Origin: an uncultured Chthoniobacterales bacterium
GTDB lineage: Bacteria; Verrucomicrobiota; Verrucomicrobiia; Chthoniobacterales; Terrimicrobiaceae
Reading direction: 5' to 3'
Length of the DNA stretch: 46,575 bases
Assembly: GCA_964607615.1 (NCBI GenBank)
Contig: CAZSMN010000002.1
Span: forward strand, 1 to 46,575
Below the pieces are notes generated by a model, which saw only the letters and a list, made by a program, of their open reading frames with translations, was not told the origin of the DNA and did no database searches. A program made the translations under genes and the position numbers. How positions within the stretch are numbered: position 1 is the first letter of the stretch; each line of letters starts with the position of its first letter. Of the stretch, positions 3,906 to 32,103 are shown in pieces.

Positions 3906-6155
3906 TCATCGTAGGACGAGGAGCTTATAGACTCCGTCGTCCGATTCAATCCCATGCGTGTCGTGGGCAAATCCCGGAAACTTGCGGTCCCAGTCCTGGA
4001 TCGCCCTCAGGTAGGCGAGAAACGGTTCGTCCATCGTGCCCAGCCGTTCGCCGGGCATGACCATGGGAATTCCCGGCGGGTAGGGGACGATGCCTGTTGC
4101 CGCAATCCGGCCGGCTGCATCGTCCACGGAGATGCGTTCCACCTCGTTGGCGATGAGCTTCTGGTAGGCGTCGGCAGGCGGCATGGCGATCTCGGGAAGC
4201 ACGGAAAACGCGCGGGCCTGTGCCTGAAGCTGTCCGCCCTGTCGCAGGTGGGACTGCATGCGTTCCCCGAGGTCGCGGAGCCCGAGGCCGGGATAGAGCG
4301 GCGCGACGGCGGGGATCGTGTCGCTCAGCGGGGCATTGGTGTCGTAGTCGCGTTTGAAGGCGAGCAGCGAGTGAACGAGCGTGCTCCACTTGGCGTTGGT
4401 GATGCCGAGCGAAAACAGGAAGAGAATCGTATAGTCGGTTGTCTTCTCGACCTCGATGCCGCGGGCATCGAGATAGGCCGTGAGAAGAGTTGCGGGAAAT
4501 CCCGTTTCCGCAATCGAGCCGTCGGTATGGACCCCGGGCGTCACGACCGAGACTTTGATAGGGTCGAGCATGCAGTAGTCCTCCTCGAGATCGAAGCCGT
4601 GCCACTCCTCGCCGGGATGGAGAACCCAGCAGGACGGGGAAGATGCGAGGAGATCCGGAGCGATTTGCTCGAACGCTTCGTGCTGACCGGTCCGGGGGTT
4701 CCGCACATGGAGAGGATTCCATGTTTGGAAAAACCAATCGTCCCGGCCGTCGTGTTCCCTCCAGAGCCTGGTGATGGTCTGCCGGAAGGCAATGGCTTCG
4801 CGAATCGATTCGTCGACCAGCACCTCGCCGCTCCGGCCTTGCATCATTGCCGCACTGATATCGTTCGAAGCGATGATCGGGTAGAAGGGTGACGTCGAGC
4901 CGTGCATCATGAACGACTCGTTGAAGCGCTGGTGATCGATGGCCTGCCGCCCGTCGCGGACATGGATAAACGAAGCCTGCGACAGCGCCGCGAGGAGCTT
5001 GTGTGTCGAGTGCGTGGCAAAGAGCGTGGGCCCGTCCGCAGGGTGTTCTCCCGGCTCGCCGCGCATCGTGAATCTGCCGGCATAAATCGGATGGAACTTC
5101 GCGTAACCATACCAGGCCTCGTCAAAATGGATCCGGTCGACGGAATCGCCGATGACCTCGAGCACGCGATCGACGTTGTACGTCAGTCCGTCATAGGTCG
5201 AGTTGGTGATGACGAGATGCGCCGGCCGTCCCTCCGCGCAGAGCTTCTCGGGCGTGAGACTCTCCGGCGGGATCGGGCCGATGATTCCCAGCCTGTTGCG
5301 GGTCGGCAGCAGATAGGCGGGGATGGCTCCGGTCAGCGTAAGGCCCTGTTCGTTGGACTTGTGGCAGTTCCGGTCGACCCAGGCCTTCTGTCCGCGTCTC
5401 ACGCAGGCCATCCAGATAATGCGGTTCGATGTGGAGGTGCCGTTGGTTACCGAATACGAGCGGTGGGCACCGAAGACCTTGGCGGCAAATTTTTCCCCCT
5501 CGCCGATCGGTCCCGTATGGTCGAGCAGCGAGCCGAGTTCCCCGACGCTGATCGACAGGTCGCTCCGGAACATGGCCTCGCCGAAGTAGTCGTAGAAAAG
5601 CCGTCCGGCCGGTGATTTCTGGAACGCCGTGCCCCCGGTATGGCCCGGTGTGTGCCACGAGTATTCGTGCACGCGGTCGAACGCGAAGAGGGCCTTGGCC
5701 ATCGGGCCGAGGAGCCCGGCTGAGTAGCTCCGAACGGCGGCGCTGATCCGTCCGCCGATAAATGGTGCGCTGTCCTCCATGAGCCAGACAAGTTCGCTCA
5801 CGGAGGCGAGCAGCGATTCGGACAGCCCCATCGCGCTTTCGCGGTCCGTCAGGAGAAAAATCGGGATGCGGTCGTTGCGGGAACGGATGAAGGCAATGAG
5901 ATCCTCGGCGGCGGCATGCGGGGCATCGGGGTCGTTTCCGAGCGTCCAGTCCACCAGCACTCCGTGAAGGCCGGCATCCGCGAGGAAAAGACTCCGCCCG
6001 TCGACGGCACCGGGACCCGGAACGACATCGATGCCGTTGAGCTCGAGTTCGGATTTCAGGGATAGCGCGGCACGGCCGGCCGCAGTGGACATTTCGAGGT
6101 CGTCATCGACCAGCAGGACACGATGGCGGAGGATTCGGGAGCGGCGTTCGATCAT
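3906..6155 (-). CDS. Biodegradative Orn/Lys/Arg-family PLP decarboxylase, SpeF/CadA-like (substrate unresolved)
   Basis: 749 aa with an N-terminal receiver-like wing (RVLLVDDD). PLP-lysine motif [56 protein letters not shown] and VITNSTYDGL resemble CadA/SpeF rather than AdiA. The decarboxylase-then-antiporter order matches speF-potE. Confidence 0.9.
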   Translation of the reverse strand: MIERRSRILRHRVLLVDDDLEMSTAAGRAALSLKSELELNGIDVVPGPGAVDGRSLFLADAGLHGVLVDWTLGNDPDAPHAAAEDLIAFIRSRNDRIPIFLLTDRESAMGLSESLLASVSELVWLMEDSAPFIGGRISAAVRSYSAGLLGPMAKALFAFDRVHEYSWHTPGHTGGTAFQKSPAGRLFYDYFGEAMFRSDLSISVGELGSLLDHTGPIGEGEKFAAKVFGAHRSYSVTNGTSTSNRIIWMACVRRGQKAWVDRNCHKSNEQGLTLTGAIPAYLLPTRNRLGIIGPIPPESLTPEKLCAEGRPAHLVITNSTYDGLTYNVDRVLEVIGDSVDRIHFDEAWYGYAKFHPIYAGRFTMRGEPGEHPADGPTLFATHSTHKLLAALSQASFIHVRDGRQAIDHQRFNESFMMHGSTSPFYPIIASNDISAAMMQGRSGEVLVDESIREAIAFRQTITRLWREHDGRDDWFFQTWNPLHVRNPRTGQHEAFEQIAPDLLASSPSCWVLHPGEEWHGFDLEEDYCMLDPIKVSVVTPGVHTDGSIAETGFPATLLTAYLDARGIEVEKTTDYTILFLFSLGITNAKWSTLVHSLLAFKRDYDTNAPLSDTIPAVAPLYPGLGLRDLGERMQSHLRQGGQLQAQARAFSVLPEIAMPPADAYQKLIANEVERISVDDAAGRIAATGIVPYPPGIPMVMPGERLGTMDEPFLAYLRAIQDWDRKFPGFAHDTHGIESDDGVYKLLVLR

Positions 6156-6158
6156 GAT

Positions 6159-6584
6159 TCAGGAGGGTAGGATGAAGGGTTTCAGGTCATCGGGGAGCAG
6201 ATGGAGACGGAACTCCAGCGCCGGGGAGCCGAAATTCATGAGGACCGCCCTCTCCAGCCCGGTGAGGCAAAGGAAGTTAAGGACCTCCGCGTCGTCGTCA
6301 CTCTCGAGAGCGGGTTTGGCCCGGCATTCGAGAAGAATCGAGCCGAAGCAGACAAAGTCGGCCTTGAAGAAACTTTGCAGGGCAGTTCCTTTGTAGAAGA
6401 CCTTCAGCGGCTTCTCGCGCTCAAAGGGGATGCGCCGGTTCACGAATTCGAGAACCAGTGCATCCTGGTAAACCGTTTCGGCCAGACCGCGGTGGAGCTG
6501 GGCATGGACTTCGACCGCTGCGCCGAGAATGGCCTCGGTCCTCGGGTCTTTGTGCTGATTTTTCTTATGAGTGGGGGATCTCAT
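6159..6584 (-). CDS. GxxExxY protein (PD-(D/E)XK-like fold family)
   Basis: Family signature GLAETVYQDAL, followed by EREKPLKVFYKG and the ..LLECRAKP.. and AVLMNFG blocks typical of GxxExxY proteins. ATG at 6584; an alternative TTG at 6596 would overlap the upstream stop. Confidence 0.8.
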   Translation of the reverse strand: MRSPTHKKNQHKDPRTEAILGAAVEVHAQLHRGLAETVYQDALVLEFVNRRIPFEREKPLKVFYKGTALQSFFKADFVCFGSILLECRAKPALESDDDAEVLNFLCLTGLERAVLMNFGSPALEFRLHLLPDDLKPFILPS

Positions 6585-6592
6585 AGCGGGGG

Positions 6593-6787
6593 TCAACGCG
6601 GTGTCTGCATGACCCGGCCGTGCTGGATGGAGTTGGTGGGAGATGGTTCATCGGACGCAACATAGGGCATCTTGCCCCGATGAAACCGGAGGTGATACTG
6701 CGGGCCTTCGCTCGGGCGTGGCCAGAACTCGTGACCGAGGAGAAATCCAACAGCAAACACTGCGAAAAGGATGGCGAGTGCGCGCAT
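6593..6787 (-). CDS. Hypothetical 64-aa protein with one N-terminal hydrophobic helix
   Basis: The ATG lies 1 nt after the adiC-like stop. The N-terminus MRALAILFAVFAVGFLLG is a signal or anchor helix. No recognisable domain. Coding status rests on position and the helix only. Confidence 0.4.
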   Translation of the reverse strand: MRALAILFAVFAVGFLLGHEFWPRPSEGPQYHLRFHRGKMPYVASDEPSPTNSIQHGRVMQTPR

Positions 6788-6788
6788 G

Positions 6789-8090
6789 CTATTCCTGGGG
6801 TGGGGGAGGTTGACGATGGCTGACCTGGTTGATCGCGTAGAGCACCGCGCTCAGCAGCAGCGCGATCGCCAGCCAGATGACCTGCTTCGGATCCGAACCG
6901 AGGACTGCCCAGAGGCAGTAGACGGTGGTAATGCCAACCATGATGCCCATTCCGACTCCGATCTTCTTTGCCAACCAGACAAGAGCGCCGGCGACGTAGA
7001 CGTAGGCAACGAGCGTCATAAGCACTGCGATGGAGGAGATGACGCCGAACTCTTTCGAGGCCGTCGGCGAGATCGTCAGGAGCTGCGCGGCCGTCATCAG
7101 AAATCCTGTGATGATGAGGCCTTTCACGGGCACTCCGTGCTGGTTCTCCACGCCGAAGATCCGTGGGAAGAGTCCGCCGTCGGAGGCGGCCTTGGCCGTC
7201 TGTGCGGTTGCGAGCACCCATCCGCCGAGCGAGCCAAGGCATCCGGCCGCCGCGCAGAAGGAGACGATGGCGCCACCCGCGGGCCCCAGCACCAGGCTTG
7301 CGCAATCGGCAAACGGTGCCGCGGATTTCTGGAGAGCGGCATTCGGGATGGCGCCCATGATGGCTGTGCACGAAAGAACATAGGTCACCGCCGCCAGAAG
7401 AACACCGCCGACCGTCGCGATGGGCACGTTCTTCTTCGGGTTATCGACCACGCCGGCTGCAACCGAGGCGGTCTCCACACCGATGAACGACCAGAGCGTT
7501 ACGTTGAGCACGCCCTGGATGGCGCCGAAGGTGTCTTTTCCGCTGACGTTCCACGCGGCCATGTAGGTCGCGGGATCGAACTTGAACCAACCGACGATTG
7601 CCACGCCGACGATGGCGACCAGCGCGAGGATTGTCGTGACGGATTGGACGTTCGTGGTGAGTTTCGGCCCGATGATGTTGATGAACGTGAACAGCCAGAT
7701 CATCCCGATACAGGCGGCGGCAAGCACGTAAGGGTCTTTAAGGGCCGGAAAGAAGAAGCTCAGATAGCCGACGCCCACGACAGCGAGTGCGACATTTCCG
7801 ATCCAGCCGGCCAGCCAGTAGAGGAGATTGGTCTGATAGCCTATGAAGGGACCGAACGCCCGCCGCGCATACGCATAGGAGCCGCCGGGGCTGTCATCGA
7901 TCGATGCCATCTTCGCGTAGACGATCGCGAGGCAGAGCGCGCCGGTGATGGTCACCACCCATCCGTAAATGGCGATGCCTCCCGTTGCCGCGAGGTTGGC
8001 CGGGAGCATGAAAACTCCGGAGCCCATGATGTTGCCCGCCACCATGAGGGTGGCCGGGATGACGCCGACTTTCTTGGAGGGATCGCTCAT
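6789..8090 (-). CDS. adiC: Arginine/agmatine antiporter
   Basis: Near-collinear with my recollection of E. coli AdiC: [100 protein letters not shown]. Start at the internal ATG 8090 (MSDPSKK); the track start at 8129 would overlap adiA. Confidence 0.9.
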
Positions 8091-8113
8091 AGGGGGGAAA
8101 GCTGTGGGGGTTG

Positions 8114-10420
8114 CTAATTCTTCACGCACCAGAAGTGGTAGAGGCCGTTTTCGACGACAGCCCCCTCCACGATTTTTTCAAAGCCGGGAAACTCGTGTCC
8201 CCAGGCTTCCATTGCGCGGAGGAAAGTCAGCCACGGCCCATCGGCCGGTCCGCAATTCTCGCCCGGCATGAGGATCGGGATGCCCGGAGGGTAGGGAATC
8301 GCGCCAACGGCAATCGTGCGCCCCGGCATCTGCGCCAGCGGGAGAAGCTCGACGTCGCCCGACATGAGTCTGGCGTTGGCAGCGCGCGGCGTGAGCACCG
8401 GCTCGGGAAGGTTTCCGAACGCGGCCGCCTGCGCCTTGTCCATCGCGCTGGTCTTCATGCGGCCAAGCATCCGGTCGCAGAGATCCTTCACTCCCATGGC
8501 TCCGTAAAGAGACGGCGCGGTGGCGACGAGGTCGGGGAGGACTTCCGAAAGATCCTCGTTGCGGTCGTAGAGCGCCTTGAAATTCAGCAGGGTATTGATG
8601 AGCGTTCCCCATTTGCCCTTGGTGATTCCGACCGAGAAAAGGCAGAGGACCATGAAGTCGGTCGTTCGCGAGGGAATGATCCCGTGCCGGTAGAGAAAGC
8701 TGCTAAGCACCGCCGCTGGAATTCCGTTTTCCTCGAGTTCGCCGTTATCTCCCATTCCCGGGCAGACAATGCCGGCCTTGATCGGATCGAGCATACACCA
8801 TCCGTCCGGAAGGCCGTCGAATCCATGCCACGTGTCTCCGGGGTGAAGGATCCAACACGAGGGGTCTGTGGCGAGCAGCTCGTGTGGCGCATCGGCGAAC
8901 GGGATGAGCTCGCGGGTGTCAGGGTCGCGCACCTCGGATGCGTTCCATGGCTGGAAAAACCAGTCGCCCTTCCGTGCAAACTCGCGGTGGGCCCTTGCAA
9001 GGGCCTGACGGAAATCCACGGCCTCATCAATCACCTCCTGCGTGAGCGCTTTTCCGTGACCGCGGTCCATCATTGCAGCGCCGATCTCGTTCGATGCGAT
9101 GATCGCGTAGAGGGGCGACGTGCTGGCCTGCGCCATGTAGGCCTCGTTGAAGCGGCTGTGCACGATCGGCCGCCGTCCGCTTCTTACGTGGATATAGGAA
9201 GACTGGGAAAGGGCAGCGAGAAGCTTGTGCGTCGAGTGCGTCGCAAAAATGGTGGGGCCATCCGAGGGATGGTCCTTTGGATCTCCCCGCATCGCGTGGC
9301 GGTCGCGGTAGATCGGATTGAACCGGGCGTAGGCATACCAGGCCTCGTCGAAATGGATCGTATCCACGCTCTGATCGAGGAGGTTCTGAACGTCGGCCGC
9401 GTGGTAGCACATGCCGTCGTAGGTGCAGTTCGTGACGACGGCATAGACCGGCCGCTCCCTGGCAAAAAGGTGGCGGAGCGGATGCTTTGCGATCTTGTCC
9501 GCGATGGCGTCCGGTGAAAACTCCGAGGGCGGAATCGGACCGATGATGCCGTAGCGGTTGCGCGTGGGGCGGAGAAAAACCGGAATCCCCCCGCTGATCA
9601 CGAGGCCCTGCTCGATCGACTTGTGGCAATTGCGATCGCAGAGGGCGGCATCGTTGTCGTTGATGATGGCCGACATGATCGAGCGGTTTGACCCCGACGT
9701 GCCGTTGAGAACCGAATAGCTGAGCTGGGCGCCGAAGACGCGCGCGGCATATTTTTCGGCCTCGCCGATCGGGCCCTCGTGATCAAGAAGCGATCCCATT
9801 GGCGTACGTTCGATGCCGGTATCCGTGCGGAAGAGATTCTCGCCGAAATAGTCGAAAAAGACGCGGCCCTCCGGCGTCTTGGTAAAGGCGACGCCTCCCT
9901 GGTGTCCGGGTGCCGCCCACGAGTGCTCGCGCGTCGCCGTGTACTCAAGAAGCGAGCGCATGAAGGGAGGCAGGAGATTCGCATGGTAGCGCCTGATCGC
10001 CGCCAGCGCGCGGCCGGCAACGAAGGGCGCCGTATCCTCCAGCATCCATACGAACTCGTTCGCGAGTTCCATGACCTCGATGCCGGGCGTATGGTTCCGA
10101 GCCCGGTCCGCCATAAGGAAGACCGGAACGTCATTGCGGCGGACGCGTATCGTTCGCAGGAGAGACTCCGCCTGCGCATGGGCCGCGGAATCATCTGCGC
10201 CGATCGTCCAGTCCACAAAGATGCAGGAGATCGAAGCGTCGGCGAGAACCACCGACTTGCCGTCCTCGACGCTTGCCGCTTCAACAACATCCGCCGAGCG
10301 GGCCGTGAACTCATTGACGAGATCCCGTATGGCGCGGCCTCCTGCCGTGTGTGGGGTTGCCAGCTTGTCATCGACAACGAGGACCCTCCGCTTGAGAAGG
10401 GTGTTGGTGCGTTCGATCAT
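8114..10420 (-). CDS. adiA: Biodegradative arginine decarboxylase
   Basis: 769 aa from ATG 10420 ([18 protein letters not shown]). [67 protein letters not shown] and [17 protein letters not shown] are present. The C-terminus [10 protein letters not shown] parallels E. coli AdiA GIYHVMCVKA. Confidence 0.9.
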
Positions 10421-10467
10421 ACGTTGATGAGGGTTGCCTGTTGGCGGATGAGAGGAAGGGAAGGGGG

Positions 10468-11817
10468 TCAGAAATTGCAGCCGAACTGGGCGCCGATCAC
10501 GAGAGCGTTCGGGGTTTGGGTGCCATTCGGCTGGATGATGTATTGGATGTCGGGCTGGATGAAGACGTTCGGGGTGAGATTGATGATGTAGCTGACGTCG
10601 AAGACGGTCTCCGCCGTCGGGTTCGATCCGGACTGCTCCGGCGCCGGCGCGAACGCGGATCCCAGCGCTCCGGTCATCCATGTGCACAAAAATTGATCCT
10701 GATCGCGTTGAGGCAGGATTCCCTGCCAGATGAGGCCGCCGAATCCCATGACCGGCATCTGCGCCACATTCAGCTGTGGCGAGTAGGTGATGCCTCCCCA
10801 GAGCGCGAGATTCTGATTCGGGTTCTTCGCGTTTTGCCAAACGGTTTGCTGCCCGATCAGGTAGAAGCCGAAGGTGTTGTCTTCGACCTCCGGACCCGTG
10901 CCCGAGGCCAGCGGAAAGTTGGAGTAGTATCCGCCGAGCTTATAGGTGCCCTGCAGCCCGGTCTCAGCGGGAAGGACCGACTTCTTCCCATCCTTGTCGT
11001 GTGTGATTTCGGATTTCCTCTCTCCGAAAGTCGGGGTCCATCCGGTCTCAAGAAACATCAGAATGCCATCGCCGGGGCGGATGGAAAAATCCAACCCGTG
11101 ATAGGCGACAAGGCCCAGCCGGTCGGTAGCTTGGTAGATGCCGGAGTTTACGTAGGTAATGGGCGAGGGATTGATCTTCAGGGTCGCTCCCCAGGTGGCA
11201 TTGGGAGAACTGGTGAACTTTGAGTTCATGAAAAGGCTGGTCGGGTTTCCGTTAATGCCGCCGCTTACCTGAATGCCGAATGCCGGCAACGAGCAGAAGT
11301 CGTCGGCGGCGACGAGGCGGCCGATCTTGAATTCCAGGAAATCGTTGAACAGCACCTGATGGTAGAAGAGCTCGTAGAACATGGCCGTCGGCGTGACGTA
11401 GGATTCCGAAACGTTGAAGACGTTGCCGATATCGGTTGAGAGATTGCGCCCGTTATTCTGGGCGCCCGAGATTTTGAAGGAAGCACCCTTCCATCCCACG
11501 AGCTTCTCCATGTCGAGAGTGACCCCGTAGAGCATCTCATCCGTGTAGGCAACCTCCCGCGTCAGACCTCCCACAGGATTGCCTTGGAAGACGCCCCAGT
11601 AGTTGAAGAACGGCGTTACCCCGTGATCGCCGGCCTTTTCAAATTCGGACTCAACCAGGTTGGGAAACCAGAAAAGATCAGCGCTGGCGGTGGATCCGCG
11701 CGCCACCGGCGCACCGCCTTCGACGGTTGGCAGACCCGCAAATAATGCGGAGGCCACAAGGCAGAAACAAGCAACCGCAGGGAGGGGGGCGAAGACCGCG
11801 CGTGGCGTGCCTTTCAT
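10468..11817 (-). CDS. OprB-family (carbohydrate-selective type) outer-membrane porin
   Basis: Signal-like N-terminus from ATG 11817 (MKGTPRAVFAPLPAVACFCLVASALFA). The sequence is beta-strand rich with alternating aromatics. OprB-like C-terminal block IQPDIQYIIQPNG...VIGAQFGCNF ends in a terminal Phe. The TTG track start at 11853 is less likely. Confidence 0.8.
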   Translation of the reverse strand: MKGTPRAVFAPLPAVACFCLVASALFAGLPTVEGGAPVARGSTASADLFWFPNLVESEFEKAGDHGVTPFFNYWGVFQGNPVGGLTREVAYTDEMLYGVTLDMEKLVGWKGASFKISGAQNNGRNLSTDIGNVFNVSESYVTPTAMFYELFYHQVLFNDFLEFKIGRLVAADDFCSLPAFGIQVSGGINGNPTSLFMNSKFTSSPNATWGATLKINPSPITYVNSGIYQATDRLGLVAYHGLDFSIRPGDGILMFLETGWTPTFGERKSEITHDKDGKKSVLPAETGLQGTYKLGGYYSNFPLASGTGPEVEDNTFGFYLIGQQTVWQNAKNPNQNLALWGGITYSPQLNVAQMPVMGFGGLIWQGILPQRDQDQFLCTWMTGALGSAFAPAPEQSGSNPTAETVFDVSYIINLTPNVFIQPDIQYIIQPNGTQTPNALVIGAQFGCNF

Positions 11818-11999
11818 AAGCGCTACTAATACAAGAGCGCACAATAGCGTCAAGAAGAAAGCCGCTCTGCCGCAAACGATTGTTACCGCTGCGGACCTTT
11901 TGAGAAGGGCGACCCCGGACCATGTAACGGTTAATCGCGTGCTGGTTGGAAGAATTTGCGGCTATGCATGCGCTCGCCCCACGCGGTGGAGATAGAACG

Positions 12000-12864: not shown

Positions 12865-13059
12865 CGAACTGAAACAGACCGCTTTGAGCGGCTGCAATCT
12901 TTAAGCGCCCGGCTTTGCCGGGGGTCGATGACTGCTTCTCTCCTCCGCAGGCGTAGGTGTTTGAAGTCTACTGCTAGGCAAGAAGAAGGCGCATGGGGTC
13001 AAAACCCCATCGTGCATAGAAGAGAAACACGGGAGCGTCTCGGAAACCTTTCGACTACC

Positions 13060-13344
13060 ATGCTTGCCAAATTCAAAATCGATTACGCCGTTCCCTTCAA
13101 CCGCCACGAATCCCCCGAGCACCATCTGACCGATGATCCGGTGGCGTGCGAAGAGTTTCTTGCCGAACTTCTGGAGAGGAAGTTCCGCATCCAGGGCATT
13201 CTGCACAACGGGATACCGCTGGAGCCGGCCCTCTTCGACAAGATGTTGCGCACCGCTGCGGGGCTTCTTGCCGCGGATCACCTTCGCGCCTCGCTGGGAA
13301 TTGACAGCGTTGAGGCCCGGCACCGCTTCGGAACGCCCGCCTGA
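13060..13344 (+). CDS. Hypothetical 94-aa protein
   Basis: ATG at 13060 (MLAKFKIDYAVPFNRHESPEHHLTDDPVACEEFLAELLERKF...). Third-position GC matches the genome and the composition is balanced, unlike the antisense ORF 12901-13323. No domain recognised. Confidence 0.5.
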   Translation: MLAKFKIDYAVPFNRHESPEHHLTDDPVACEEFLAELLERKFRIQGILHNGIPLEPALFDKMLRTAAGLLAADHLRASLGIDSVEARHRFGTPA

Positions 13345-13347
13345 GCG

Positions 13348-14202
13348 TCAGTGTAGAAACCGTTCCAGTGCGATGTGCCGCGCGACGCGACGGAGGTAGG
13401 ATCTCCCGCGCCGCGCCGTTGCGAGTATCGTCTCCCCGTCTCCTTCGCTGGCGATCTCCAGAATAAAGACGCTGTGGAAATGCACATAGGCCAGCTCGCG
13501 CAGGACGCGCTCCCATTTGATGCATCCATCGCCGGGAGGAAGGTGCTCGTCGCCATGGCCGTGGTTGTCATGGGCATGGACGAGGCGGATTTTCGGCCCG
13601 AGGGAGTGAATCAGGAGCTGGAGATCCCTTGAGAGGGCGGCGTGGCCTGTATCAAGACAGGCTCCAACCTGGCAGGTGTTAAGGGCGTTGAGGATCCGCA
13701 GCATGTCGCGGATGTTTCCGAAAAGAAGGTGGGGAAGCTTGTTCTCCACGGCGCAGCCGATGCCGGCGCGCGCACAGGCATCGGCGATCCGGCTCAGCGA
13801 GCGGACGGCATGATCGATCCGGCGCATGCGCTCCTCGCCGGCGTCGGGGACTGCGATCTCCGATCCCGGGTGGACCACGAGATGATGTGCGCCGAAGGCT
13901 GCGGCCGCATCGACCGCGCAGAGGATCTCCTGGACAGAGGACTCGCGGCAGGTGGTGTCCGGGGACGAGATATCGAGGCCGATGGCAAAGGGGGCGTGGA
14001 GCGAATAGACTTCCATTCCGAGCGCCACAGCGAGCGCGGCGGCCTCGCGCACCACAGCGGCATGATGGATGTTGAGATGGGCCGGCGACGTGCACACCTC
14101 GACGAGGCTGAAGCCGCTCGAACGGATCGGCTCCAGACATTTGAGGATGCTATCGCGCCAGAAACAGCCCGTTGACAGGCCCACGGGCCAGTTTGTCATC
14201 AT
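13348..14202 (-). CDS. Xylose isomerase-like / AP-endonuclease-2 (EndoIV) fold TIM-barrel protein
   Basis: 284 aa carrying the metal-ligand series typical of PF01261-type barrels: LHAPF, HLVVHPGSE, AVENK, CLDTGHA, LVHAHDNHGHGDEHLPPGDGCIKW. The start codons (ATGATG at 14202) lie 53 nt inside the 3' end of the upstream gene. Confidence 0.8.
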   Translation of the reverse strand: MMTNWPVGLSTGCFWRDSILKCLEPIRSSGFSLVEVCTSPAHLNIHHAAVVREAAALAVALGMEVYSLHAPFAIGLDISSPDTTCRESSVQEILCAVDAAAAFGAHHLVVHPGSEIAVPDAGEERMRRIDHAVRSLSRIADACARAGIGCAVENKLPHLLFGNIRDMLRILNALNTCQVGACLDTGHAALSRDLQLLIHSLGPKIRLVHAHDNHGHGDEHLPPGDGCIKWERVLRELAYVHFHSVFILEIASEGDGETILATARRGRSYLRRVARHIALERFLH

Positions 14203-15595
14203 TTCTCAGCTCCAGTGCGCACTGGCGGAACCTCTCAAGATTGTCCGGACAGGCTATGGTTGTGCAGATTCCTTTTTCGCGGGCGGACTGGCAGTTCAGG
14301 TCGATGAGGTCATCGGTTCCTACCGCAAAGAGCCCGGAGAATATGCGGGTGTAAAATTCGGCCCGCATGGCGGGATCATATCCGGTCCACTGGTTTCCCC
14401 AGCCGAAATCACGTTCGAACTTCGAGCGGATGAGGCCCGCGATATGGCGGGGGTGCCATCCCCGGGCCAGAAAAATCTGGGTGATAAGCCGCATGTTGCA
14501 GGGCCGGAGCAGCAGATCGTTCGGGTGGGTGAGAACCCTCTGCGCGCAGGCGGGGAGGCCCGCTCGATCCAGCAGGTCGTAGGTGTACGGCCAGCTTTCA
14601 GGTGCAGAAGGCGTCTCGGCGTAGAACCATTCGTGAAAGGTCCTCAGCGAGGACTCTCTGTAAGCGGTGACCAGCTTCGCCATGCCGTCCGGTTGACTGG
14701 GAATTCCCGCCGGGGTATCGGTCGCGATCTCGGCCGCGGCGTCCGGAGTTCTCATGCGGTGGACATGCGGGCCCCATTGGTTCTGCTTGAGGGGAACAAA
14801 GACGAGCGGCTCCAGCTGTTGGACAATATGCGTTCCGACAAGCCCCTCCTGCTGCCAGGGCTTGAGGTAGCCGCTGAAGGGCGTGCGGACGGTTCGCGTG
14901 GGGAGGGGATCCCCGTATTCGGAGACGTCGATGGAGACCATCTCGCGCCCGCGCAGGGTGGGACCGACTTCAACCGCCGTGAGGTCCACCGGGATGGCGC
15001 ATTCGGGTGATGCGACCTTCTTCACGTGGTGGGCGACGAATTCCATCACGAGCCCGAGCCCGGCAAACGCGCGGACCATGGTGGCGGAGGCCTTGCGACC
15101 CCGCGGAAGGTAATTCGGGGTGCCGGATGGCGCGGCCGACCGGCCGAGCTCCACCAGACACTCGAAGGCGGCGGAGTCTGCGGGAATGCTCCAGGCGTAG
15201 TGGTGGCCGCGTCCGCTGAGCACATGGAGGGGATGGATGCCGAACTGTGCGAGGAGCGTCTCAATCGCGCGGGCGACCGGCTCCTGAAGCTCAAAGGCCC
15301 TGCCCGGGTCGAGGTAGGGTTCGCCTGCGAAATCAAAGTTCACATACTCCACATCGAGGTGGGCGATGAGGCACGCGCTGTCCCAGAGCGAGCGGCAGAT
15401 ATCGAGGCCCTCGTCGAGGCCGAGGTCGAGGTCTCCGGGCGGGCGCGGTGCCCGGTCGGCGCGGAACGGGCCGTCGGCCGTGATGTATTCGCAGGTTGCC
15501 GTCTCGGCGCAGTCGCCGCCGAGAAACTCGCTGATCCGGGACCGGACCGCCGGACGGCGGTAGTAGGACTTCAGGATGCCTGTGATGTCCTTCAT
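14150..15595 (-). CDS. Uncharacterised protein with an archaeo-eukaryotic primase (AEP/PrimPol)-like catalytic core and a Cys-rich C-terminal domain
   Basis: 481 aa. Motif I-like CLIAHLDVEY (D81-x-E83). Motif II-like VLSGRGHHYAW (sGxGxH, aa 127-132). Motif III-like SIDVSEYGDPLPTRTVRTPFSGYLK (D223...R-x-P-x-S...K). The C-terminal ~150 aa has Cys at 350, 366, 435, 443, 448 and 459. The gene itself is well supported; the function is motif-level inference. Confidence 0.6.
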   Translation of the reverse strand: MKDITGILKSYYRRPAVRSRISEFLGGDCAETATCEYITADGPFRADRAPRPPGDLDLGLDEGLDICRSLWDSACLIAHLDVEYVNFDFAGEPYLDPGRAFELQEPVARAIETLLAQFGIHPLHVLSGRGHHYAWSIPADSAAFECLVELGRSAAPSGTPNYLPRGRKASATMVRAFAGLGLVMEFVAHHVKKVASPECAIPVDLTAVEVGPTLRGREMVSIDVSEYGDPLPTRTVRTPFSGYLKPWQQEGLVGTHIVQQLEPLVFVPLKQNQWGPHVHRMRTPDAAAEIATDTPAGIPSQPDGMAKLVTAYRESSLRTFHEWFYAETPSAPESWPYTYDLLDRAGLPACAQRVLTHPNDLLLRPCNMRLITQIFLARGWHPRHIAGLIRSKFERDFGWGNQWTGYDPAMRAEFYTRIFSGLFAVGTDDLIDLNCQSAREKGICTTIACPDNLERFRQCALELRNDDKLARGPVNGLFLAR

Positions 15596-15659
15596 GTGAG
15601 GGGGGTGACCCGCCGCGCGAGGGGTAGGGGGAAGCGCGGCGGGTCGGTTGCGGGGCAGG

Positions 15660-16109
15660 TCAGGAGACGGGAACCTCGAGCGCCTGGGCTTTGGTCTCAG
15701 GTCCCTTGGGGAGATGGACCTTCAGCAGGCCGTCTTTGAACTCGGCGCTGATCTCTTCGCCCTTGGCGCCCTCCGGCAGGAGGAACGACCGCTCGAAGGC
15801 GCCGTAGGCGCGCTCGATCCGGTGGTAGCGGAGGCCTTTCTCCTCCTTCTCGAGCTTGCGCTCGCCGGTGATGCGGAGCGAGCCGTCCTCAACGCGGACT
15901 TTGACTTCGTCTTTTTTCACCTCCGGGAGGTCGACCTTGATGGTGAACTCCTTGTCGGTTTCGGCCACATCGACGAGCGGCATCCACTCGTTGACGCCGA
16001 TGGTCTCATCGGCGGTGCCCGGCAGCAGAGGCCGGCCGAAGAGGTTGGCCATGCGGTTCTGCATTGTTTCGAGATCTCTGATCGGGTTCCATTTTGTCAG
16101 CATATTCAT
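15660..16109 (-). CDS. Hsp20/alpha-crystallin small heat-shock protein
   Basis: 149 aa from ATG 16109 (MNMLTKWNPIRDLE..). Alpha-crystallin domain blocks PLVDVAETDKEFTIKVDLPEVKKDEVKV, ERAYGAFERSFLLP and AEFKDGLLKVHLPK. Confidence 0.9.
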   Translation of the reverse strand: MNMLTKWNPIRDLETMQNRMANLFGRPLLPGTADETIGVNEWMPLVDVAETDKEFTIKVDLPEVKKDEVKVRVEDGSLRITGERKLEKEEKGLRYHRIERAYGAFERSFLLPEGAKGEEISAEFKDGLLKVHLPKGPETKAQALEVPVS

Positions 16110-16265
16110 TGGGTTCGGTTCGTTGTCCGGCTGGTGCTTCGTTGTCCGCCCGTCCGCGCAGCCGGGCCGCGGGCGGAAGGTGGCCGGGCCGCGTGCAAGC
16201 CGGCCGGTTGGTATCAACAGACACGCGGAGGGAGGGGGCGGAAATAAGGTGAAACCCCACCACGC

Positions 16266-22028: not shown

Positions 22029-22463
22029 TCAGTAATTGGGCAACAGCCGGTCGTTCGGGACCAGCTTGTAATGGGCCTGGAGGAACGCGACGAGGTCGAT
22101 CATCTGCGCGACGGTCATCTCCTCGTTGATCTGTGGCATCGGCGATTCCTTCGTGACGTTTCCGGTATACTTATTGGCCACGAAGTGCGTGGGATTGATG
22201 ATCGCCGTGACAAGTTCTCCGTAGGTTTTCACGCGAGTCGTTTCGCCGCCGAGGGTGAGGTTGAAGCGGGTTGGCGGTGTGAGCTGTTCAACTCCCTCGA
22301 CGCGGTGACAGGTGTAGCACTTCAGCGAGAAGAATGCCTGCCGGCCCCTCTCGATATTGCCGTCCGGGAGGCGGAGGCCATAAGAGGACTTCGGATTGTT
22401 GCATCCGGCGAGGACGGTTGCTGCGGCCAGGCCGGCGATCAGGAGCGGGAGTGTACGGTTCAT
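22029..22463 (-). CDS. Lipoprotein c-type cytochrome
   Basis: Lipobox LAGC near the N-terminus, a single haem motif CYTCH, and a downstream Met-containing segment (SPMPQ). The ATG overlaps the upstream stop (ATGA). Confidence 0.8.
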   Translation of the reverse strand: MNRTLPLLIAGLAAATVLAGCNNPKSSYGLRLPDGNIERGRQAFFSLKCYTCHRVEGVEQLTPPTRFNLTLGGETTRVKTYGELVTAIINPTHFVANKYTGNVTKESPMPQINEEMTVAQMIDLVAFLQAHYKLVPNDRLLPNY

Positions 22464-23980
22464 GGTAGTGAGGGGTGGATGAGATCCTGCGGCGCGGAGG
22501 AATCCTTCGTGACCTCGATGATCGGATCCTCAAAGAGATCGACCTGGAAGCGCAGGACGGTCGCCGGCTCGCCGGGTTGGATCGACCCCTTTTGTCGGGC
22601 GAGGCGGAGCTGGTCGTCGACGGTCGTGATGGCTTTGCTGCCGGGAAGAAGGAGTCCCTTGCGGCCGTCGCCCGTCGATACGACGACGCCATAAACGGCG
22701 GGGTCCAGCTCCTCCGGAGAGGAGACCTTCTCGATCGAATGGACGACGCTCACTTCCAGAAGCAAGCCGGCCACCTCGTCTGCGCTGACGGGGTGAAACC
22801 GCGCATCGCTTTTCGCAGCGAGACGCGCATTTCTCCAGACCTCGAAGACGATGTTCGGCGTGACGGGCTCCGGGCTGCCGGCGAAGCCCCGGAGCGAGCC
22901 GTCGCGCTTTCGGAGCGCGACAAAGACGCCATGCTTCTCCGAAGTGTAGTCGTCAAACGGCGGCGGCGGGGGCTCGACGCTGCCCGCGACGGCGGATTCG
23001 ATGGCGTGCCGGGCGATGGACGGCAGCAGCCGGCCGCCGCTTTTTCCGAAGGAAACCGCGTCCGCATCGGGAAGCGAGCTTTCGCTGAAGAGCAGGGCGG
23101 TTCCGTAGCCGACGCCCAGCGGCGCCTCGTAGCACAGGAGCTTGTGCCCGTTGGAGCGCCAGCCGGCGGCCGCGGTGGCGATCAATGTCGGATCGATGGC
23201 ATCCTCGGATGCGGTTTCCCGGAGACTCTCCGGAATGTGACGCAGGGCACGGTAGTCGCCGGAGCCCACCAATGTGAGAAACGCCTCATCAAAGGAGTTG
23301 GCGCGCGGGTGGTCGCCGCCGGCGGGCCGGCAGGCATGGGAATGGCTCATGTCGCCGCTCGCGACGATGGCGATCCTGTGCGACAGCGCATCGGCAGCGG
23401 CTGCGATAGCTTCTCCGAAAAGGACGATGCCATCGTATTTTGAGAAATGGAGGCTCAGGACGACGGTGGGACCGTCCCAGCCCGCCTCGGCCAGAAACCA
23501 GAGCGGGACCAGCGCGCCGTGGTCGAGTGGATGGCTGGAGATCGACCAGGTCTCGAGGTTGCGGGCTCCGGCCTCGAGGGCGATCGCCCGGGCCATAGCA
23601 AGGTCGAGAGGAAGATTGATCTCCGCATGGGGTGCGTTGAAACAGGCGAGCGAGCCGGAGACCCGGCTGTCCGTCCAGATGCCGAAGGCGCGGCTGCGTC
23701 TGGGCGAATGCGGCGAGATCAGGACAATGCCATCCGGACGGTGCCGGAGGAGCAGCGTGGCAGCCGTGCGCATGGCGTGCTGGCTCGCGGCGACGGGGCT
23801 TTCCCCGTGTGTGCTCACCCCGGGGATGAGGACCGGCGCGTGCGGCATAAGGACTGCACAGACCACAGTCTCCGGGAGGCTCTCCTTGCGGTCAGGAGCT
23901 GGTTGGAGCTCTGCTGCGCTGACGGTTTCCGGCGGTGAAATCCGCCCCGCTTTGGTGGCATTCGTTGGCATGCCAGACAT
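22460..23980 (-). CDS. Fusion of a LigB/Memo-like (class III extradiol dioxygenase fold) domain and an AMMECR1 domain
   Basis: The N-terminal half has LMPHAPVLIPGV, HPLDHGALVPLWF and VASGDMSHSH. The C-terminal half has HGVFVALRKRDGSLRGFAG, DARFHPVS, LLEVSVVHS and GLLLPG, which is the AMMECR1 layout. The hallmark LRGCIG reads LRGFAG here. Confidence 0.8.
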   Translation of the reverse strand: MSGMPTNATKAGRISPPETVSAAELQPAPDRKESLPETVVCAVLMPHAPVLIPGVSTHGESPVAASQHAMRTAATLLLRHRPDGIVLISPHSPRRSRAFGIWTDSRVSGSLACFNAPHAEINLPLDLAMARAIALEAGARNLETWSISSHPLDHGALVPLWFLAEAGWDGPTVVLSLHFSKYDGIVLFGEAIAAAADALSHRIAIVASGDMSHSHACRPAGGDHPRANSFDEAFLTLVGSGDYRALRHIPESLRETASEDAIDPTLIATAAAGWRSNGHKLLCYEAPLGVGYGTALLFSESSLPDADAVSFGKSGGRLLPSIARHAIESAVAGSVEPPPPPFDDYTSEKHGVFVALRKRDGSLRGFAGSPEPVTPNIVFEVWRNARLAAKSDARFHPVSADEVAGLLLEVSVVHSIEKVSSPEELDPAVYGVVVSTGDGRKGLLLPGSKAITTVDDQLRLARQKGSIQPGEPATVLRFQVDLFEDPIIEVTKDSSAPQDLIHPSLP

Positions 23981-29098: not shown

Positions 29099-32083
29099 TT
29101 ACGGTTGAGTCTGTCCCCCGCCGGTCCGCTCTGTCGTGAGGATGGCGTAAACCGTGCCGGTGGCATCCACAAGGGGCGATGCCACGACGGAGACCTCCAC
29201 GACAGCCCCGCCCTTCGCGATCCGGCGGAGAACGCTCGGATCGAGGCGGTGGGCCTCGCTGATCTGCCAGACCGTTTTCAACTGGAGGCTTTGCTCCTCC
29301 GGCGGCATGAGAGCAAGGATGTTCATTTGCAGGGCTTCTTCCTCCGTCCAGCCATAGATGCGCGTGGCGGCGGGGTTCCATGCGAGGATCCGGCCGTCGA
29401 GCGCGCGGACGATGATGGCATCGCGGGCATCGCGCACCACGGCGGCCAGGTGCCTCAGCGTCTGGGCCTCCTTGATCGCGTCGCCGGCCTTTTTGATATC
29501 CGTGATCTCGATGAACGTGATCACTGCACCGGCGATGACATTCTCGAGCGTGCGGTAGGGCCGGATGCGCAGCAGGAACCACCCGCCGTCACGCGCCTGC
29601 ACTTCGATCTCCTTCGGGACGAGGGTATCCAGAACGGATTGCACGTCGGCCACAAGATCGTCGTAGGCGGGGAGGTTGGTGACGATGTGGCCGATGGGGC
29701 GTCCGACATCTGCTGGGATCAGGTTGATGATATGGGCCGCCGACGGGGTGAACCTCTGGATAAGCTGGTTCTGGTCGACGAAGATGGTTCCGATTCCCGT
29801 GCCGGCCATGAGGTTGTTGATGTCGTTGTTGGCCTTGGAAAGATCGATCACTTTCGTTTGCAGTTCGGCATTCAACGTGGCGAGCTCTTCGTTGAGGGAT
29901 TGGAGTTCCTCCTTGGAAGTCTCGAGTTCTTCGTTGGTCGACTGTAGCTCCTCATTCATCGACTGCATTTCCTCGTTTGAGGATTTGAGCTCCTCGTTCG
30001 AGGTTTCGAGCGCTTCGCAGGTGCTTTCGAGGAATTCGTTTTTTGTGGTCAGTTCCGCTTTGAGCCTCGCGACGAGCGACCGGCCGCCTTTGGCGGGTGC
30101 GGCCTTGGGTTCCGGACCGGAGTCTCTCTTTGCCGGTGCAGGCAGCGTTTCCTCGAAGATCACGAGGTAGTGCGGTTTTGTGACCTCCGTCTCATGCTCG
30201 AGCGGCCCGATGGCGATGTCGACGTGCGTGGTCTCCCCGTTGTTCCGCACCTTGATACCGTGGACGGTGACGTTTGTTCTGCCGGATGTCGCCTTGTGGA
30301 AAGCCAGGCCCAGGGCGCGACGCAGGCCGCTGTGGGCCATCTTAAGAAGGTTCAGACGGGCGCCGCCTTCGGGCATAGGCTGGAGGTATCGCTCTGTCTG
30401 CCCGTGAAGGTAGAGGACGTCACCGCTTTCCGTAACGATTGCGGCCTTGAGGGGTGTGCCGGCGGGTAGCGAACGCTCCACGAGATGTGGCGGGAGGGTG
30501 TTTTTTGATGCCGGCAGCCCCCGCGCCGCGGAGCCCGGAGCGAGGATCTGCCGCTCAACCAGCGGCGGAAAGACCTGGGCGGAAGGCTCGATCCGCAGCT
30601 CCTCGTTTTTCCGGTAGATCTTCGCCGTCCGGTCGATGGGCAGGAAGAGTTCAGGGCTGTCGCCGGTGGTTTCGGAGGTGCCCAGAAAGAGCAGGCCGTG
30701 CGGGTTGAGCGCATATTGGAAAAGCCGGATCACGCGTTTCTGCAAGTGCCCCTGCAGGTAAATAAGAAGGTTGCGGCAGCTGATCAGGTCGAGTCGCGAG
30801 AAGGGAGGGTCTTTGATCAGATCCTGCTCGGAGAAGATGACCATCTCCCGCACGCGTTTGTGGATGCGATAGCTTCCGTCCGGCTCGTGCAGAAAGAAGC
30901 GGCGGAGTCGCTCCGGGGATATCGCTCCAGCAAGGGATGCGGGAAAAAGCCCGGCGCGGGCCTTGGCGATGGCGGCGCGGTCGATGTCGGTTGCAAAGAT
31001 CTGGACGCGGAACGATGTCTTGAGCCTCTCCGCATACTCGAGAAGAAGAATGCCGATCGAGTAGGCTTCCTCGCCGGTCGAACATCCGGGTACCCAGATC
31101 CGCACATACGATCCGGCAGCACGGGAGTGGAGCATCTCCGGGATCACTTTTTTCTCCAGGACCTTGAACGCTTCGGGATCGCGGAAAAACGACGTCACGC
31201 CGATCAGGAAATCTTGAAACAACGTGTCGATCTCGGAGGGCGTCCTCTGGAGGTAGAGGAGGAGATCATTCTTCTGGCGGATGTGCTGCACGGTCATCCG
31301 GCGCTCGATCCGCCGCGACAGGGTCTTTGTTTTGTATTGAGAGAAGTCGTGGCCGGTCCGGTTCTGAACGAGGATACAGATCTTTTTCAGGAAGTCCTCC
31401 GGGAAATCCTGGCCGGCGGGAGCGGGAGCCTTTCCGGACATCTTCGATCGGGCGGCTGTGGAGCGGAGCGCGGCCGGCATGTCTGCCGGCGATACGACCG
31501 CATCGGCGACACCGGCGTCGATGGCATGCCGGGGCATGGAGTCGTAGTCTGCGGATACAGGGCTCTGGACGAGGGTGCGGCCTCCTGCCCGCTTTATGGC
31601 CTTGAGCCCTTCGGTCCCGTCGCTGCCTGCCCCGGAGAGGACGATGCCGATGGCTCTACTGCTGAGATCCTGCGCGAGGGAGCGGAAGAAGAAATCGATC
31701 GGCAGGCGGTGGCCACGCGGCGCCGATGGTTCGAAAAGGTGCAGGATGCCATCGGACAGCGCCATGTCGCAGTTCGGCGGGATGATATAGGCCGCTCCCG
31801 GCTGGACCGGCAGCCCGTCGACCGCCTCACGCACCTTCATTTTCGTGTGTCGCTGGATCAGCTCGTCCAGGATGCTCCCGTGGTCGGGCTCAAGATGCTG
31901 GACAACGATGATGGCATGCCGTGCGATGTCGGCGGGCTTGAGCGCGGAAAAAAAAGCCGTCAGCGCCTTGAGGCCGCCTGCAGAGGTGCCGACGCCGATA
32001 ACGCTGAACGGCTTGTCGGCCGGATCAGCATCTTTTCGGGGTAGGGCAGGCTTGGGCGGCGTGGCGGGACTTTTCTTTTTCAT
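29099..32083 (-). CDS. CheB methylesterase - CheR methyltransferase - coiled coil - PAS fusion protein
   Basis: CheB core (VIGVGTSAGGLKAL, VVQHLEPDH, SGAGSDGTEGLKAIK). CheR core (FFRDPEAF, RIWVPGCSTGEEAYSIGILL, FATDID). Heptad-rich ELKSSNEEMQSMNEELQSTNEELETSKEELQSLNEEL, followed by two PAS-like repeats. ATG at 32083; a GTG at 32107 would overlap the upstream stop. Confidence 0.9.
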   Translation of the reverse strand: MKKKSPATPPKPALPRKDADPADKPFSVIGVGTSAGGLKALTAFFSALKPADIARHAIIVVQHLEPDHGSILDELIQRHTKMKVREAVDGLPVQPGAAYIIPPNCDMALSDGILHLFEPSAPRGHRLPIDFFFRSLAQDLSSRAIGIVLSGAGSDGTEGLKAIKRAGGRTLVQSPVSADYDSMPRHAIDAGVADAVVSPADMPAALRSTAARSKMSGKAPAPAGQDFPEDFLKKICILVQNRTGHDFSQYKTKTLSRRIERRMTVQHIRQKNDLLLYLQRTPSEIDTLFQDFLIGVTSFFRDPEAFKVLEKKVIPEMLHSRAAGSYVRIWVPGCSTGEEAYSIGILLLEYAERLKTSFRVQIFATDIDRAAIAKARAGLFPASLAGAISPERLRRFFLHEPDGSYRIHKRVREMVIFSEQDLIKDPPFSRLDLISCRNLLIYLQGHLQKRVIRLFQYALNPHGLLFLGTSETTGDSPELFLPIDRTAKIYRKNEELRIEPSAQVFPPLVERQILAPGSAARGLPASKNTLPPHLVERSLPAGTPLKAAIVTESGDVLYLHGQTERYLQPMPEGGARLNLLKMAHSGLRRALGLAFHKATSGRTNVTVHGIKVRNNGETTHVDIAIGPLEHETEVTKPHYLVIFEETLPAPAKRDSGPEPKAAPAKGGRSLVARLKAELTTKNEFLESTCEALETSNEELKSSNEEMQSMNEELQSTNEELETSKEELQSLNEELATLNAELQTKVIDLSKANNDINNLMAGTGIGTIFVDQNQLIQRFTPSAAHIINLIPADVGRPIGHIVTNLPAYDDLVADVQSVLDTLVPKEIEVQARDGGWFLLRIRPYRTLENVIAGAVITFIEITDIKKAGDAIKEAQTLRHLAAVVRDARDAIIVRALDGRILAWNPAATRIYGWTEEEALQMNILALMPPEEQSLQLKTVWQISEAHRLDPSVLRRIAKGGAVVEVSVVASPLVDATGTVYAILTTERTGGGQTQP

Positions 32084-32103
32084 GGCGGTGCGTGGCAGGG
32101 TCC

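Follow-up and report, generated by a model that had tools for sequence, protein, structure and literature searches.

An uncultured Chthoniobacterales bacterium encodes a chromosomal protein of 481 amino acids that is, by its predicted fold and its sequence motifs, a member of the superfamily formed by archaeo-eukaryotic primases (AEPs). Its gene (14150..15595, minus strand) lies in a 46,575 nt stretch of DNA, hereafter the window (NCBI GenBank assembly GCA_964607615.1, contig CAZSMN010000002.1, positions 1 to 46,575), and founds an unclassified family of this superfamily. The end of the gene overlaps the start of a second gene on the same strand, which encodes a 284-amino-acid TIM-barrel protein (13348..14202, minus strand). 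The novelty lies in the AEP family itself, in one of its domains and in its obligate partner, and we found no paper in the literature on this family or on any pairing of an AEP with an AP_endonuc_2 enzyme. The pair is probably a module, not described before, that cleans DNA ends and fills gaps or primes. The more specific reading, that a new cellular AEP family works with an endonuclease IV (EndoIV)-type phosphoesterase in DNA repair or damage tolerance, has in our judgement an even chance of being correct.

Fold and catalytic residues of the AEP-like protein

We built an AlphaFold model of the 481-amino-acid protein from 38 homologues (predicted local distance difference test, pLDDT, 88.5; predicted template modelling score, pTM, 0.91) and compared it with the PDB using Foldseek. 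The top 12 informative matches are all AEPs, with a probability of 1.00 for the best eight and E-values of ∼1e-3. Prim-PolC from M. smegmatis (PDB IDs: 5op0, 6sa0 and 6sa1) and LigD-Pol from M. tuberculosis (PDB IDs: 2r9l and 4mky) are matched with probabilities of 0.99–1.00 and target-normalised TM scores of 0.43–0.52, and the CRISPR-associated Prim-Pol (CAPP) with TM scores of 0.50–0.55, while human PriS, pRN1 and African swine fever virus (ASFV) PrimPol are found further down the list. From Foldseek and the predicted secondary structure, the catalytic domain comprises residues 1–265 (14801..15595, minus strand), with LigD-Pol and Prim-PolC as its nearest matches in structure. Its predicted elements run as in the AEP palm, in the order beta(DxE)-alpha-beta-SGxGxH-beta-long alpha-beta(D)-beta. 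A non-AEP fold was checked for in the N-terminal half, and the model instead displays the AEP fold, which joins an N-terminal alpha-beta module to an RRM-like palm.

The initial annotation of this DNA had proposed three AEP motifs in the AEP order (D-x-E, sGxGxH and D...R-x-P-x-S...K), and the translation confirms all three. Motif I, LIAHLDVEYVNFD (15332..15370, minus strand), reads LIAHLDVEY on the model strand E75–86 and provides Asp81 and Glu83 as putative metal ligands. Motif II, LSGRGHHY (15197..15220, minus strand), contains Gly130 and His132, the latter a putative nucleotide-binding histidine. Motif III and the strand that follows it, MVSIDVSEYGDPLPTRTVRTPFSGYLKP (14858..14941, minus strand), read MVSID on the model strand E218–223 and present Asp223, Pro230, Arg234, Arg237 and Lys245. 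Across 282 non-redundant AEP-like homologues, Gly130 is kept in every sequence, Asp81 in 277, His132 in 275, Asp223 in 281, Arg234 in 279 and Arg237 in 277; position 83 is Glu in 244 and Asp in 34 (278 together), and Pro230 is invariant even when the distant homologue set is included. The proposed catalytic residues (Asp81, Glu83, His132 and Asp223) are accordingly conserved family-wide, at 275–281 of the 282 sequences. With Arg234, Arg237 and Lys245 they make up a putative complete set for two metals and nucleotide binding. The three motifs, well beyond chance expectation and persistent at 25–30% identity, are the most conserved positions of the family and fall in canonical order on the canonical secondary-structure elements. 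Representatives that are 25–42% identical still keep LD[VI][E/D]Y, [ST]GxG[YH]H and LD[LI][ST]..DP...R..R..FS...K, and because this catalytic signature is near-invariant and persists at such identities, the assignment to the AEP superfamily stands.

Similarity at the level of sequence profiles is slight. Against a small profile of LigD-Pol that we assembled anew from PDB-confirmed sequences, hhalign returned a single local match, weak (E 0.012, probability 3.5%), which sets SG-RGHH on SGSKGLH with His132 opposite LigD His178. The 481-amino-acid protein matches no Pfam family at E ≤ 1 and nothing in NCBIfam, PADLOC or PHROG, and has no PDB sequence match by phmmer or by family profile. Since no existing sequence model recognises the protein, we regard the family as new within the superfamily.

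The TIM-barrel partner

The 284-amino-acid protein is a TIM barrel of the AP_endonuc_2 family (PF01261, E 4.9e-39), and the metal-ligand motifs that had been noted in it (HPGS, DTGH and HAHDN..DEH) are present. In an alignment of 76 partner sequences with the Nfo protein of E. coli (NC_000913.3), eight residues, His111, Glu153, Asp184, His187, His209, Asp218, His220 and Glu249, are each at least 97% conserved among the partners and align, in order, with Nfo His109, Glu145, Asp179, His182, His216, Asp229, His231 and Glu261. The ninth metal ligand is probably the conserved His69 in LHAPF, which lies outside the local alignment and is matched by its motif to Nfo His69 in PHDSY. Comparison of the partner family with E. 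coli Nfo by hhalign gave a probability of 96.5% and an E-value of 9e-10. By alignment, the barrel carries an EndoIV-type metal-ligand set, with at least eight of the nine ligands.

The curated Nfo models are missed by a wide margin (TIGR00587 at 27.1 bits against a cut-off of 129.65, and NF002198 at 31.8 against 244), and for this reason we do not consider the barrel an Nfo orthologue. Its nearest named relatives are CbiR (NF041277, E 2.8e-16) and MJ1311 (PDB ID: 3wqo, E 3.6e-16), with which it has HAHDN-G-DEH in common. We rejected identity with CbiR itself, as the score of 59.8 bits is under the cut-off of 105 and cobamide genes are absent among the neighbours. A role as a sugar isomerase or ketose 3-epimerase was also rejected, because the His/Asp/Glu ligands of the barrel make up the full set of the EndoIV type and not that of epimerases, the extra His and Asp ligands being EndoIV-like; the NCBIfam epimerase and isomerase models fall far below their cut-offs, and PDB epimerases match only at E 1e-7 or weaker. 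The barrel is best described as a putative EndoIV-type multinuclear metallo-phosphoesterase.

Conservation of the gene pair

The two open reading frames (ORFs) and their 53 nt out-of-frame overlap (14150..14202, minus strand) are as the initial annotation described them. The pairing extends well beyond the window: in every one of 85 related loci, which come from genomes of the Verrucomicrobia type, the barrel gene follows the AEP-like gene at once and on the same strand. In most of these loci the TIM-barrel match begins ∼28–46 nt before the AEP match ends, which indicates that the overlap itself is conserved, and the called overlaps in three loci with otherwise unrelated flanks (L001, L002 and L004) measure 44–59 nt. 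This arrangement of reading frames indicates that the two genes are translationally coupled through the overlap.

All-against-all clustering of the neighbouring ORFs over 86 loci revealed that the AEP-like and barrel genes are the only ones linked in every locus. A third conserved partner did not emerge from this clustering, where the high-count clusters are antisense shadow ORFs, and hsp20 is found upstream in 32 of the 86 loci, within one subclade only. Two proteins join the AEP-like and AP_endonuc_2 parts in a single chain, P0131 (747 amino acids) and P0151 (724 amino acids); the first is a continuous ORF (L141, 562–2805) on a lone 2.9 kb contig. Chance association of the two genes was rejected, given that the pair is invariant and sometimes fused.

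A metagenome scan with a narrower alignment recovered a distant branch of the family. Here, 21 loci contain two tandem AEP-like paralogues, most of them with no adjacent TIM-barrel gene, and the full catalytic set is present in 42 of the 42 copies. These loci are L092, L093, L098–L103, L106, L108, L109, L111–L113, L118, L126 and L128–L132 (for example, L093 at 5938–7407 and 7545–8984).

The C-terminal helical domain

The C-terminal domain was described initially as a helical tail of ∼150 amino acids; in the model it is longer, at ∼215 amino acids (residues ∼266–481; 14153..14800, minus strand), and is all-helical, with the signatures PND-LLL-P and GWHPRHIAG. Modelled alone, the domain has a pLDDT of 81. 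Foldseek found nothing above a probability of 0.09 for it in the PDB, a profile search of the PDB gave no match, and neither search found PriL or PriX. As modelled, residues 266–481 are a helical domain new to solved structures.

Six cysteines had been listed for this region, correctly at positions 350, 366, 435 and 459, while those given as 443 and 448 are at 444 and 449. Four of the six, Cys350 (14546–14548), Cys435 (14291–14293), Cys444 (14264–14266) and Cys449 (14249–14251, all minus strand), are conserved among the 282 homologues, and Cys366 and Cys459 are not. All four are present in 200 sequences, only the first three in 14 and none in ∼62, with mixed patterns in ∼6. That the four are kept or lost as a unit suggests that they form a single metal or Fe-S site, with a putative span of 14249..14548 (minus strand). 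In the tandem loci of the distant branch, the four cysteines are always present in copy 1 and, in 14 of the 21 loci, in copy 2 as well. In a Terrimicrobiaceae-like, hsp20-linked subclade (loci L003, L008, L014, L015, L021–L028 and similar; proteins P0020, P0026, P0042, P0097, P0105 and P0119), the last ∼60 residues are replaced or truncated and all four cysteines are gone, including Cys350, with the AEP-barrel pair kept. The AEP-like protein of the window is hsp20-linked yet retains the four.

The earlier suggestion of a Cys-rich Fe-S or Zn module of the PriL type is therefore partly borne out, in that four cysteines form a co-conserved unit, and is weakly supported as regards PriL. In the viral predicted-structure library BFVD, the best match to the domain is an archaeal-virus PriL large subunit, at a weak probability of 0.60 (E 0.67, 188 aligned columns). 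After the sequence of the human PriL C-terminal domain had been confirmed, hhalign set LP(P)C350 on human PriL FPPC287, which contributes the first cluster ligand, again weakly (probability 2.6%). With a profile of 200 sequences this LPPC/FPPC alignment scores 20.4 against 12.4 ± 2.4 for shuffled targets, two of 150 shuffles reaching it, and covers 15 columns only. The cysteines are spaced by 85, 9 and 5 residues, compared with 80, 17 and 40 in human PriL. Fused PriL-like and PriCT helical modules recur in AEPs (PMC5862659), and we accordingly treat a PriL/PriCT-like initiation module as a plausible but unproven identity for the domain.

Distribution and inheritance

The AEP-like family comprises more than 1352 clusters at 90% identity, all labelled hypothetical, and 577 representatives at 50% identity (E < 1e-3); a precomputed Pfam domain is absent from all of the 120 homologues listed. 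Named sources of the clusters are Terrimicrobiaceae, Chthoniobacterales and Spartobacteria, and ∼406 species-representative genomes encode the protein, nearly all of them Verrucomicrobiota and mostly Chthoniobacterales. The module is kept as a core gene pair, including in the genomes of Udaeobacter, which we take to be reduced. A few metagenome-assembled genomes labelled Planctomycetota, Phycisphaerae, Methylomirabilota, Alphaproteobacteria or Fibrobacter also contain verrucomicrobial-type pairs with 47–49% identity (L035, L074, L076, L081, L082, L084 and L085), which could reflect a true wider spread, horizontal transfer or binning error.

The initial annotation saw no phage, plasmid, LigD/Ku or CRISPR context around the gene, and this was borne out by PADLOC, PHROG, the 86-locus clustering and a scan of viral contigs, none of which revealed such a context. 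No relative was found among 2.9 million viral contigs, and no integrase, helicase or plasmid genes were found among the neighbours. The concentration of the ∼406 genomes mostly in one verrucomicrobial lineage, the intact pair in the 85 loci and the synteny at the level of subclades together argue for vertical inheritance. By these genomic comparisons, Verrucomicrobia of the Chthoniobacterales type carry the AEP-like gene on the chromosome and inherit it vertically.

Genomic setting in the window

The neighbours of the pair in the window are hsp20, glmS, DUF2334, an OprB porin, two Orn/Lys/Arg decarboxylases, and two-component and chemotaxis proteins, and the Pfam annotation thus agrees with the housekeeping setting (hsp20, glmS) recognised earlier. 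This neighbourhood lacks features of a mobile element, and the sole anomaly of composition is a mild dip in GC to 0.57 at 12–14 kb. The hsp20 gene (15660..16217, minus strand; PF00011, E 5.7e-25) is directly upstream of the AEP-like gene, and the 64 nt gap between them folds into a GC-rich hairpin (15607..15645, minus strand) with a perfect 12 bp stem and a 15 nt loop (ΔG −32.6 kcal/mol, z −5.6, by RNA folding). We found neither a U-tract nor a sigma-70-like promoter in this gap, and for these reasons co-transcription with hsp20 is plausible in the subclade of the window; the hairpin may be a processing, stabilising or partial-termination element. A comparable hairpin occupies the same position between hsp20 and the AEP-like gene in locus L003.

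Downstream, a small ORF without a Pfam match (12928–13344, plus strand) is convergent to the TIM-barrel gene. It has a homologue of 47% identity in the same convergent placement in L001 (10488–10772), and others elsewhere in the locus in L004, L048 and L067, such that its linkage is inconsistent. The two Orn/Lys/Arg decarboxylase genes are paralogous (3906–6155 and 8114–10840, both minus strand; PF01276, E ∼1e-153 to 1e-157), and between them lies a pair of ORFs of ∼448 amino acids on opposite strands (6771–8117, plus strand, and 6789–8129, minus strand), the first of which gave no match in a Pfam scan. The OprB porin gene is at 10468–11853. Further along, a 506-amino-acid protein joins a LigB-type extradiol dioxygenase domain to an AMMECR1 domain (22460–23980, minus strand), and a 1002-amino-acid fusion comprises CheB methylesterase, CheR methyltransferase and PAS parts (29099–32107, minus strand).

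Proposed function and alternatives

In the mechanism we propose, the AEP-like protein and the barrel would share a nucleic-acid substrate and serve DNA repair or damage tolerance under stress or in stationary phase. Where there is damage or a block, such as an abasic site, a 3′-phosphate or the like, the barrel would incise or clean the site and leave a 3′-OH, from which the AEP would either extend over a short gap or, alternatively, begin de novo synthesis beside the lesion. The four-Cys helical domain would take the role of the PriL C-terminal domain or PriCT modules in holding the initiating nucleotide and the template, and a ligase of the host, from a gene at another site, would do the sealing. 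The closest parallel comes from base excision repair (BER) in mycobacteria: EndoIV takes away a 3′ block, the short gap is filled by Prim-PolC with ribonucleotides, and the nick is closed by LigC (PMC5663958). LigD is a second precedent, in that it joins an AEP polymerase with a 3′-phosphoesterase. The position of hsp20 directly upstream in one subclade, with only a hairpin between, was counted in favour of this mechanism.

Several observations weigh against a role in DNA repair or damage tolerance. The profile links are weak both for the catalytic domain to known AEPs (hhalign probability 3.5%) and for the C-terminal domain to PriL (2.6%). By sequence, the cobamide phosphodiesterase CbiR and MJ1311 are both closer to the barrel than authentic Nfo is, and the structure of MJ1311 reportedly has no DNA-binding groove. 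No ligase, Ku, helicase or glycosylase is recurrently linked among the 86 loci. A LexA box (TGTTC-N4-GAACA, the verrucomicrobial motif, with ≤2 mismatches between −300 and +20 of the start) is not enriched upstream, occurring in 13 of the 86 loci and in 50 of 430 control segments. One homologue of 612 amino acids (P0221) has an N-terminal CBS pair before the AEP-like domain, and CBS domains are more typical of metabolic enzymes. Finally, in the distant branch the barrel gene is adjacent in only ∼10 of the 42 loci with room for it.

Much of this evidence would fit a function away from DNA, which we consider unlikely but a serious alternative. The initial annotation had likewise named a non-DNA transferase pair beside DNA repair or tolerance. 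Here, the AEP domain would be a nucleotidyltransferase whose product is a dinucleotide, an oligonucleotide or a small molecule linked to a nucleotide (a signal, a cofactor intermediate or a storage compound), and the CbiR/MJ1311-like barrel would hydrolyse or mature a phosphodiester in that product, in formal analogy to pairs of GGDEF (a palm domain) and EAL (a TIM barrel). It is kept alive by the missing linkage to repair genes (the neighbours are metabolic or variable), the lack of an SOS signal, the CBS fusion, the frequent absence of the partner in the distant branch, and the affinity of the barrel for CbiR, which acts as a phosphodiesterase on the cobamide nucleotide loop, and for MJ1311. 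The tandem paralogues of that branch, both apparently intact catalytically, and the retention of an invariant core gene pair even in Udaeobacter are likewise compatible with it. Set against these points, the structural neighbours of the AEP-like protein are DNA gap-filling and end-joining polymerases, and Arg234, Arg237 and Lys245 sit on the strand after motif III, as in LigD-Pol (...TTIAPYSLR). The barrel also misses the CbiR cut-off in a setting free of cobamide genes, and to our knowledge every characterised AEP acts on nucleic acids.

The C-terminal domain bears on a further possibility, that the protein is a single-chain primase (a PriS-like part with an Fe-S domain like that of the PriL C-terminus) for replication restart or repriming, with the barrel as an accessory, for example in the removal of primers or ribonucleotides. 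Single-chain PriS-PriL primases (PMC10250227) and the AEP and PriL-like fusion PolpTN2 (PMC5862659) are known, and in the AEP-like protein four co-conserved cysteines lie in a helical domain fused directly to the AEP domain, for which PriL is the best BFVD match and LPPC aligns on FPPC of PriL. We nevertheless consider this reading quite improbable. The link to PriL is weak (probability 0.60 at E 0.67; empirical p of ∼0.013 for the hhalign result over 15 columns), the PDB searches lack a PriL or PriX match, and the cysteine spacing differs from that of human PriL (85, 9 and 5 against 80, 17 and 40). In addition, a whole subclade has lost the cysteines and the C-terminus and still keeps the AEP-barrel pair, and no helicase or replication gene is linked in the 86 loci.

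Mobile elements carry the majority of the bacterial AEP families described so far (PMC5862659), yet the idea that this gene is a mobile-element remnant or cargo, or a Prim-Pol of anti-phage defence, is largely refuted and very improbable, given the empty viral-contig, PADLOC and PHROG searches, neighbours free of integrase, helicase and plasmid genes, a composition that is normal save for the mild GC dip, and ∼406 genomes mostly of one lineage with the pair intact in 85 of 85 loci and synteny within subclades. Equally improbable is that the AEP resemblance is spurious and masks another fold and function: Pfam, NCBIfam and PDB sequence searches gave no match at the thresholds tried, and the Foldseek matches have E-values of only ∼1e-3 and TM scores of 0.43–0.55, but the informative structural matches are all AEPs, from four different subfamilies, and the three motifs keep their canonical order and elements as the most conserved positions of the family.

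Comparison with known systems and significance

Of the characterised systems, Prim-PolC provides the best structural match to the catalytic domain (5op0 and 6sa0), with the same catalytic motifs; it too is chromosomal and cellular, and the mycobacterial enzyme cooperates with an EndoIV-type 3′-end cleaner before gap filling (PMC5663958). The differences are that sequence similarity is undetectable save in motif II, that no ligase gene is linked here, and that the phosphoesterase here is operonic, overlapping or fused, whereas the mycobacterial one is a separate interacting protein and the barrel is not an Nfo orthologue. The AEP-like family also adds the 215-amino-acid four-Cys helical domain. 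The LigD (Pol-PE-Lig)/Ku system of non-homologous end joining (NHEJ) similarly combines an AEP polymerase with an end-preparing 3′-phosphoesterase, and LigD-Pol ranks second structurally. In contrast to that system, no Ku or ligase is linked in the 86 loci, and membership in its sequence family is not detectable. The fold of the LigD PE domain differs from the AP_endonuc_2 TIM barrel of the present phosphoesterase. The protein thus has the fold and motifs of the AEP superfamily, as modelled, and resembles LigD-Pol and Prim-PolC in structure, but probably lies outside their families, with no ligase/Ku linkage and a profile similarity limited to the weak match at motif II.

An AEP domain followed by a C-terminal helical module is also found in PolpTN2, in single-chain PriS-PriL (for example, of Nanoarchaeum equitans) and in PriCT Prim-Pols, and in the PriL-like cases this module has four cysteines, as in the AEP-like family. 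Those proteins are archaeal or borne by plasmids and viruses (PMC5862659 and PMC10250227), whereas the AEP-like family is bacterial, chromosomal and vertical, and its C-terminal domain is at most a candidate homologue of PriL or PriCT. Nfo belongs to the same TIM-barrel superfamily as the partner, and eight of the nine ligands of its trinuclear site are aligned and conserved, the ninth probably so, although the barrel is far under the Nfo family cut-offs. CbiR, a metal-dependent phosphodiesterase for cobamide remodelling in Akkermansia, another verrucomicrobium, is together with the uncharacterised MJ1311 of M. jannaschii (3wqo) the closest sequence relative of the barrel. Unlike these, the barrel always has an AEP-like gene as its partner (85 loci), scores below the CbiR cut-off and has no cobamide genes near.

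Bacteria use DnaG primases for replication, and the AEPs that they carry have to date been accounted for either by NHEJ or LigC repair complexes, to which they belong, or by mobile elements that bring them as cargo (PMC5862659 and PMC5663958). The AEP-like family is large, chromosomal and vertical and lies outside Pfam and NCBIfam, with a catalytic centre that appears intact, a new four-Cys domain and an obligate EndoIV-type partner. Beyond the repair reading itself, we raise only tentatively, as a possibility rather than an expectation, that the pair is a third kind of cellular bacterial AEP system beside LigD/NHEJ and Prim-PolC/BER. In this system one chain would comprise the primase-polymerase and a PriL-like Fe-S domain of its own for initiation, and overlap or fusion would tie it firmly to an EndoIV-type phosphoesterase, for autonomous lesion processing that would incise or clean, then prime or fill. 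It would be a core function of an abundant soil and freshwater lineage, with relatives in other phyla as tandem, doubly active paralogues.

The system is compact, being two genes or one fusion protein, and is directly testable by expression, activity assays, and UV-visible and electron paramagnetic resonance (EPR) spectroscopy. If its substrate is not DNA, this would be the first AEP with such chemistry known to us. Chthoniobacterales and Udaeobacter are lineages of high abundance in soils and fresh waters that have seldom been brought into culture. Should the pair be a repair or damage-tolerance module, it would represent a new architecture for excision repair or repriming in Chthoniobacterales and Udaeobacter.

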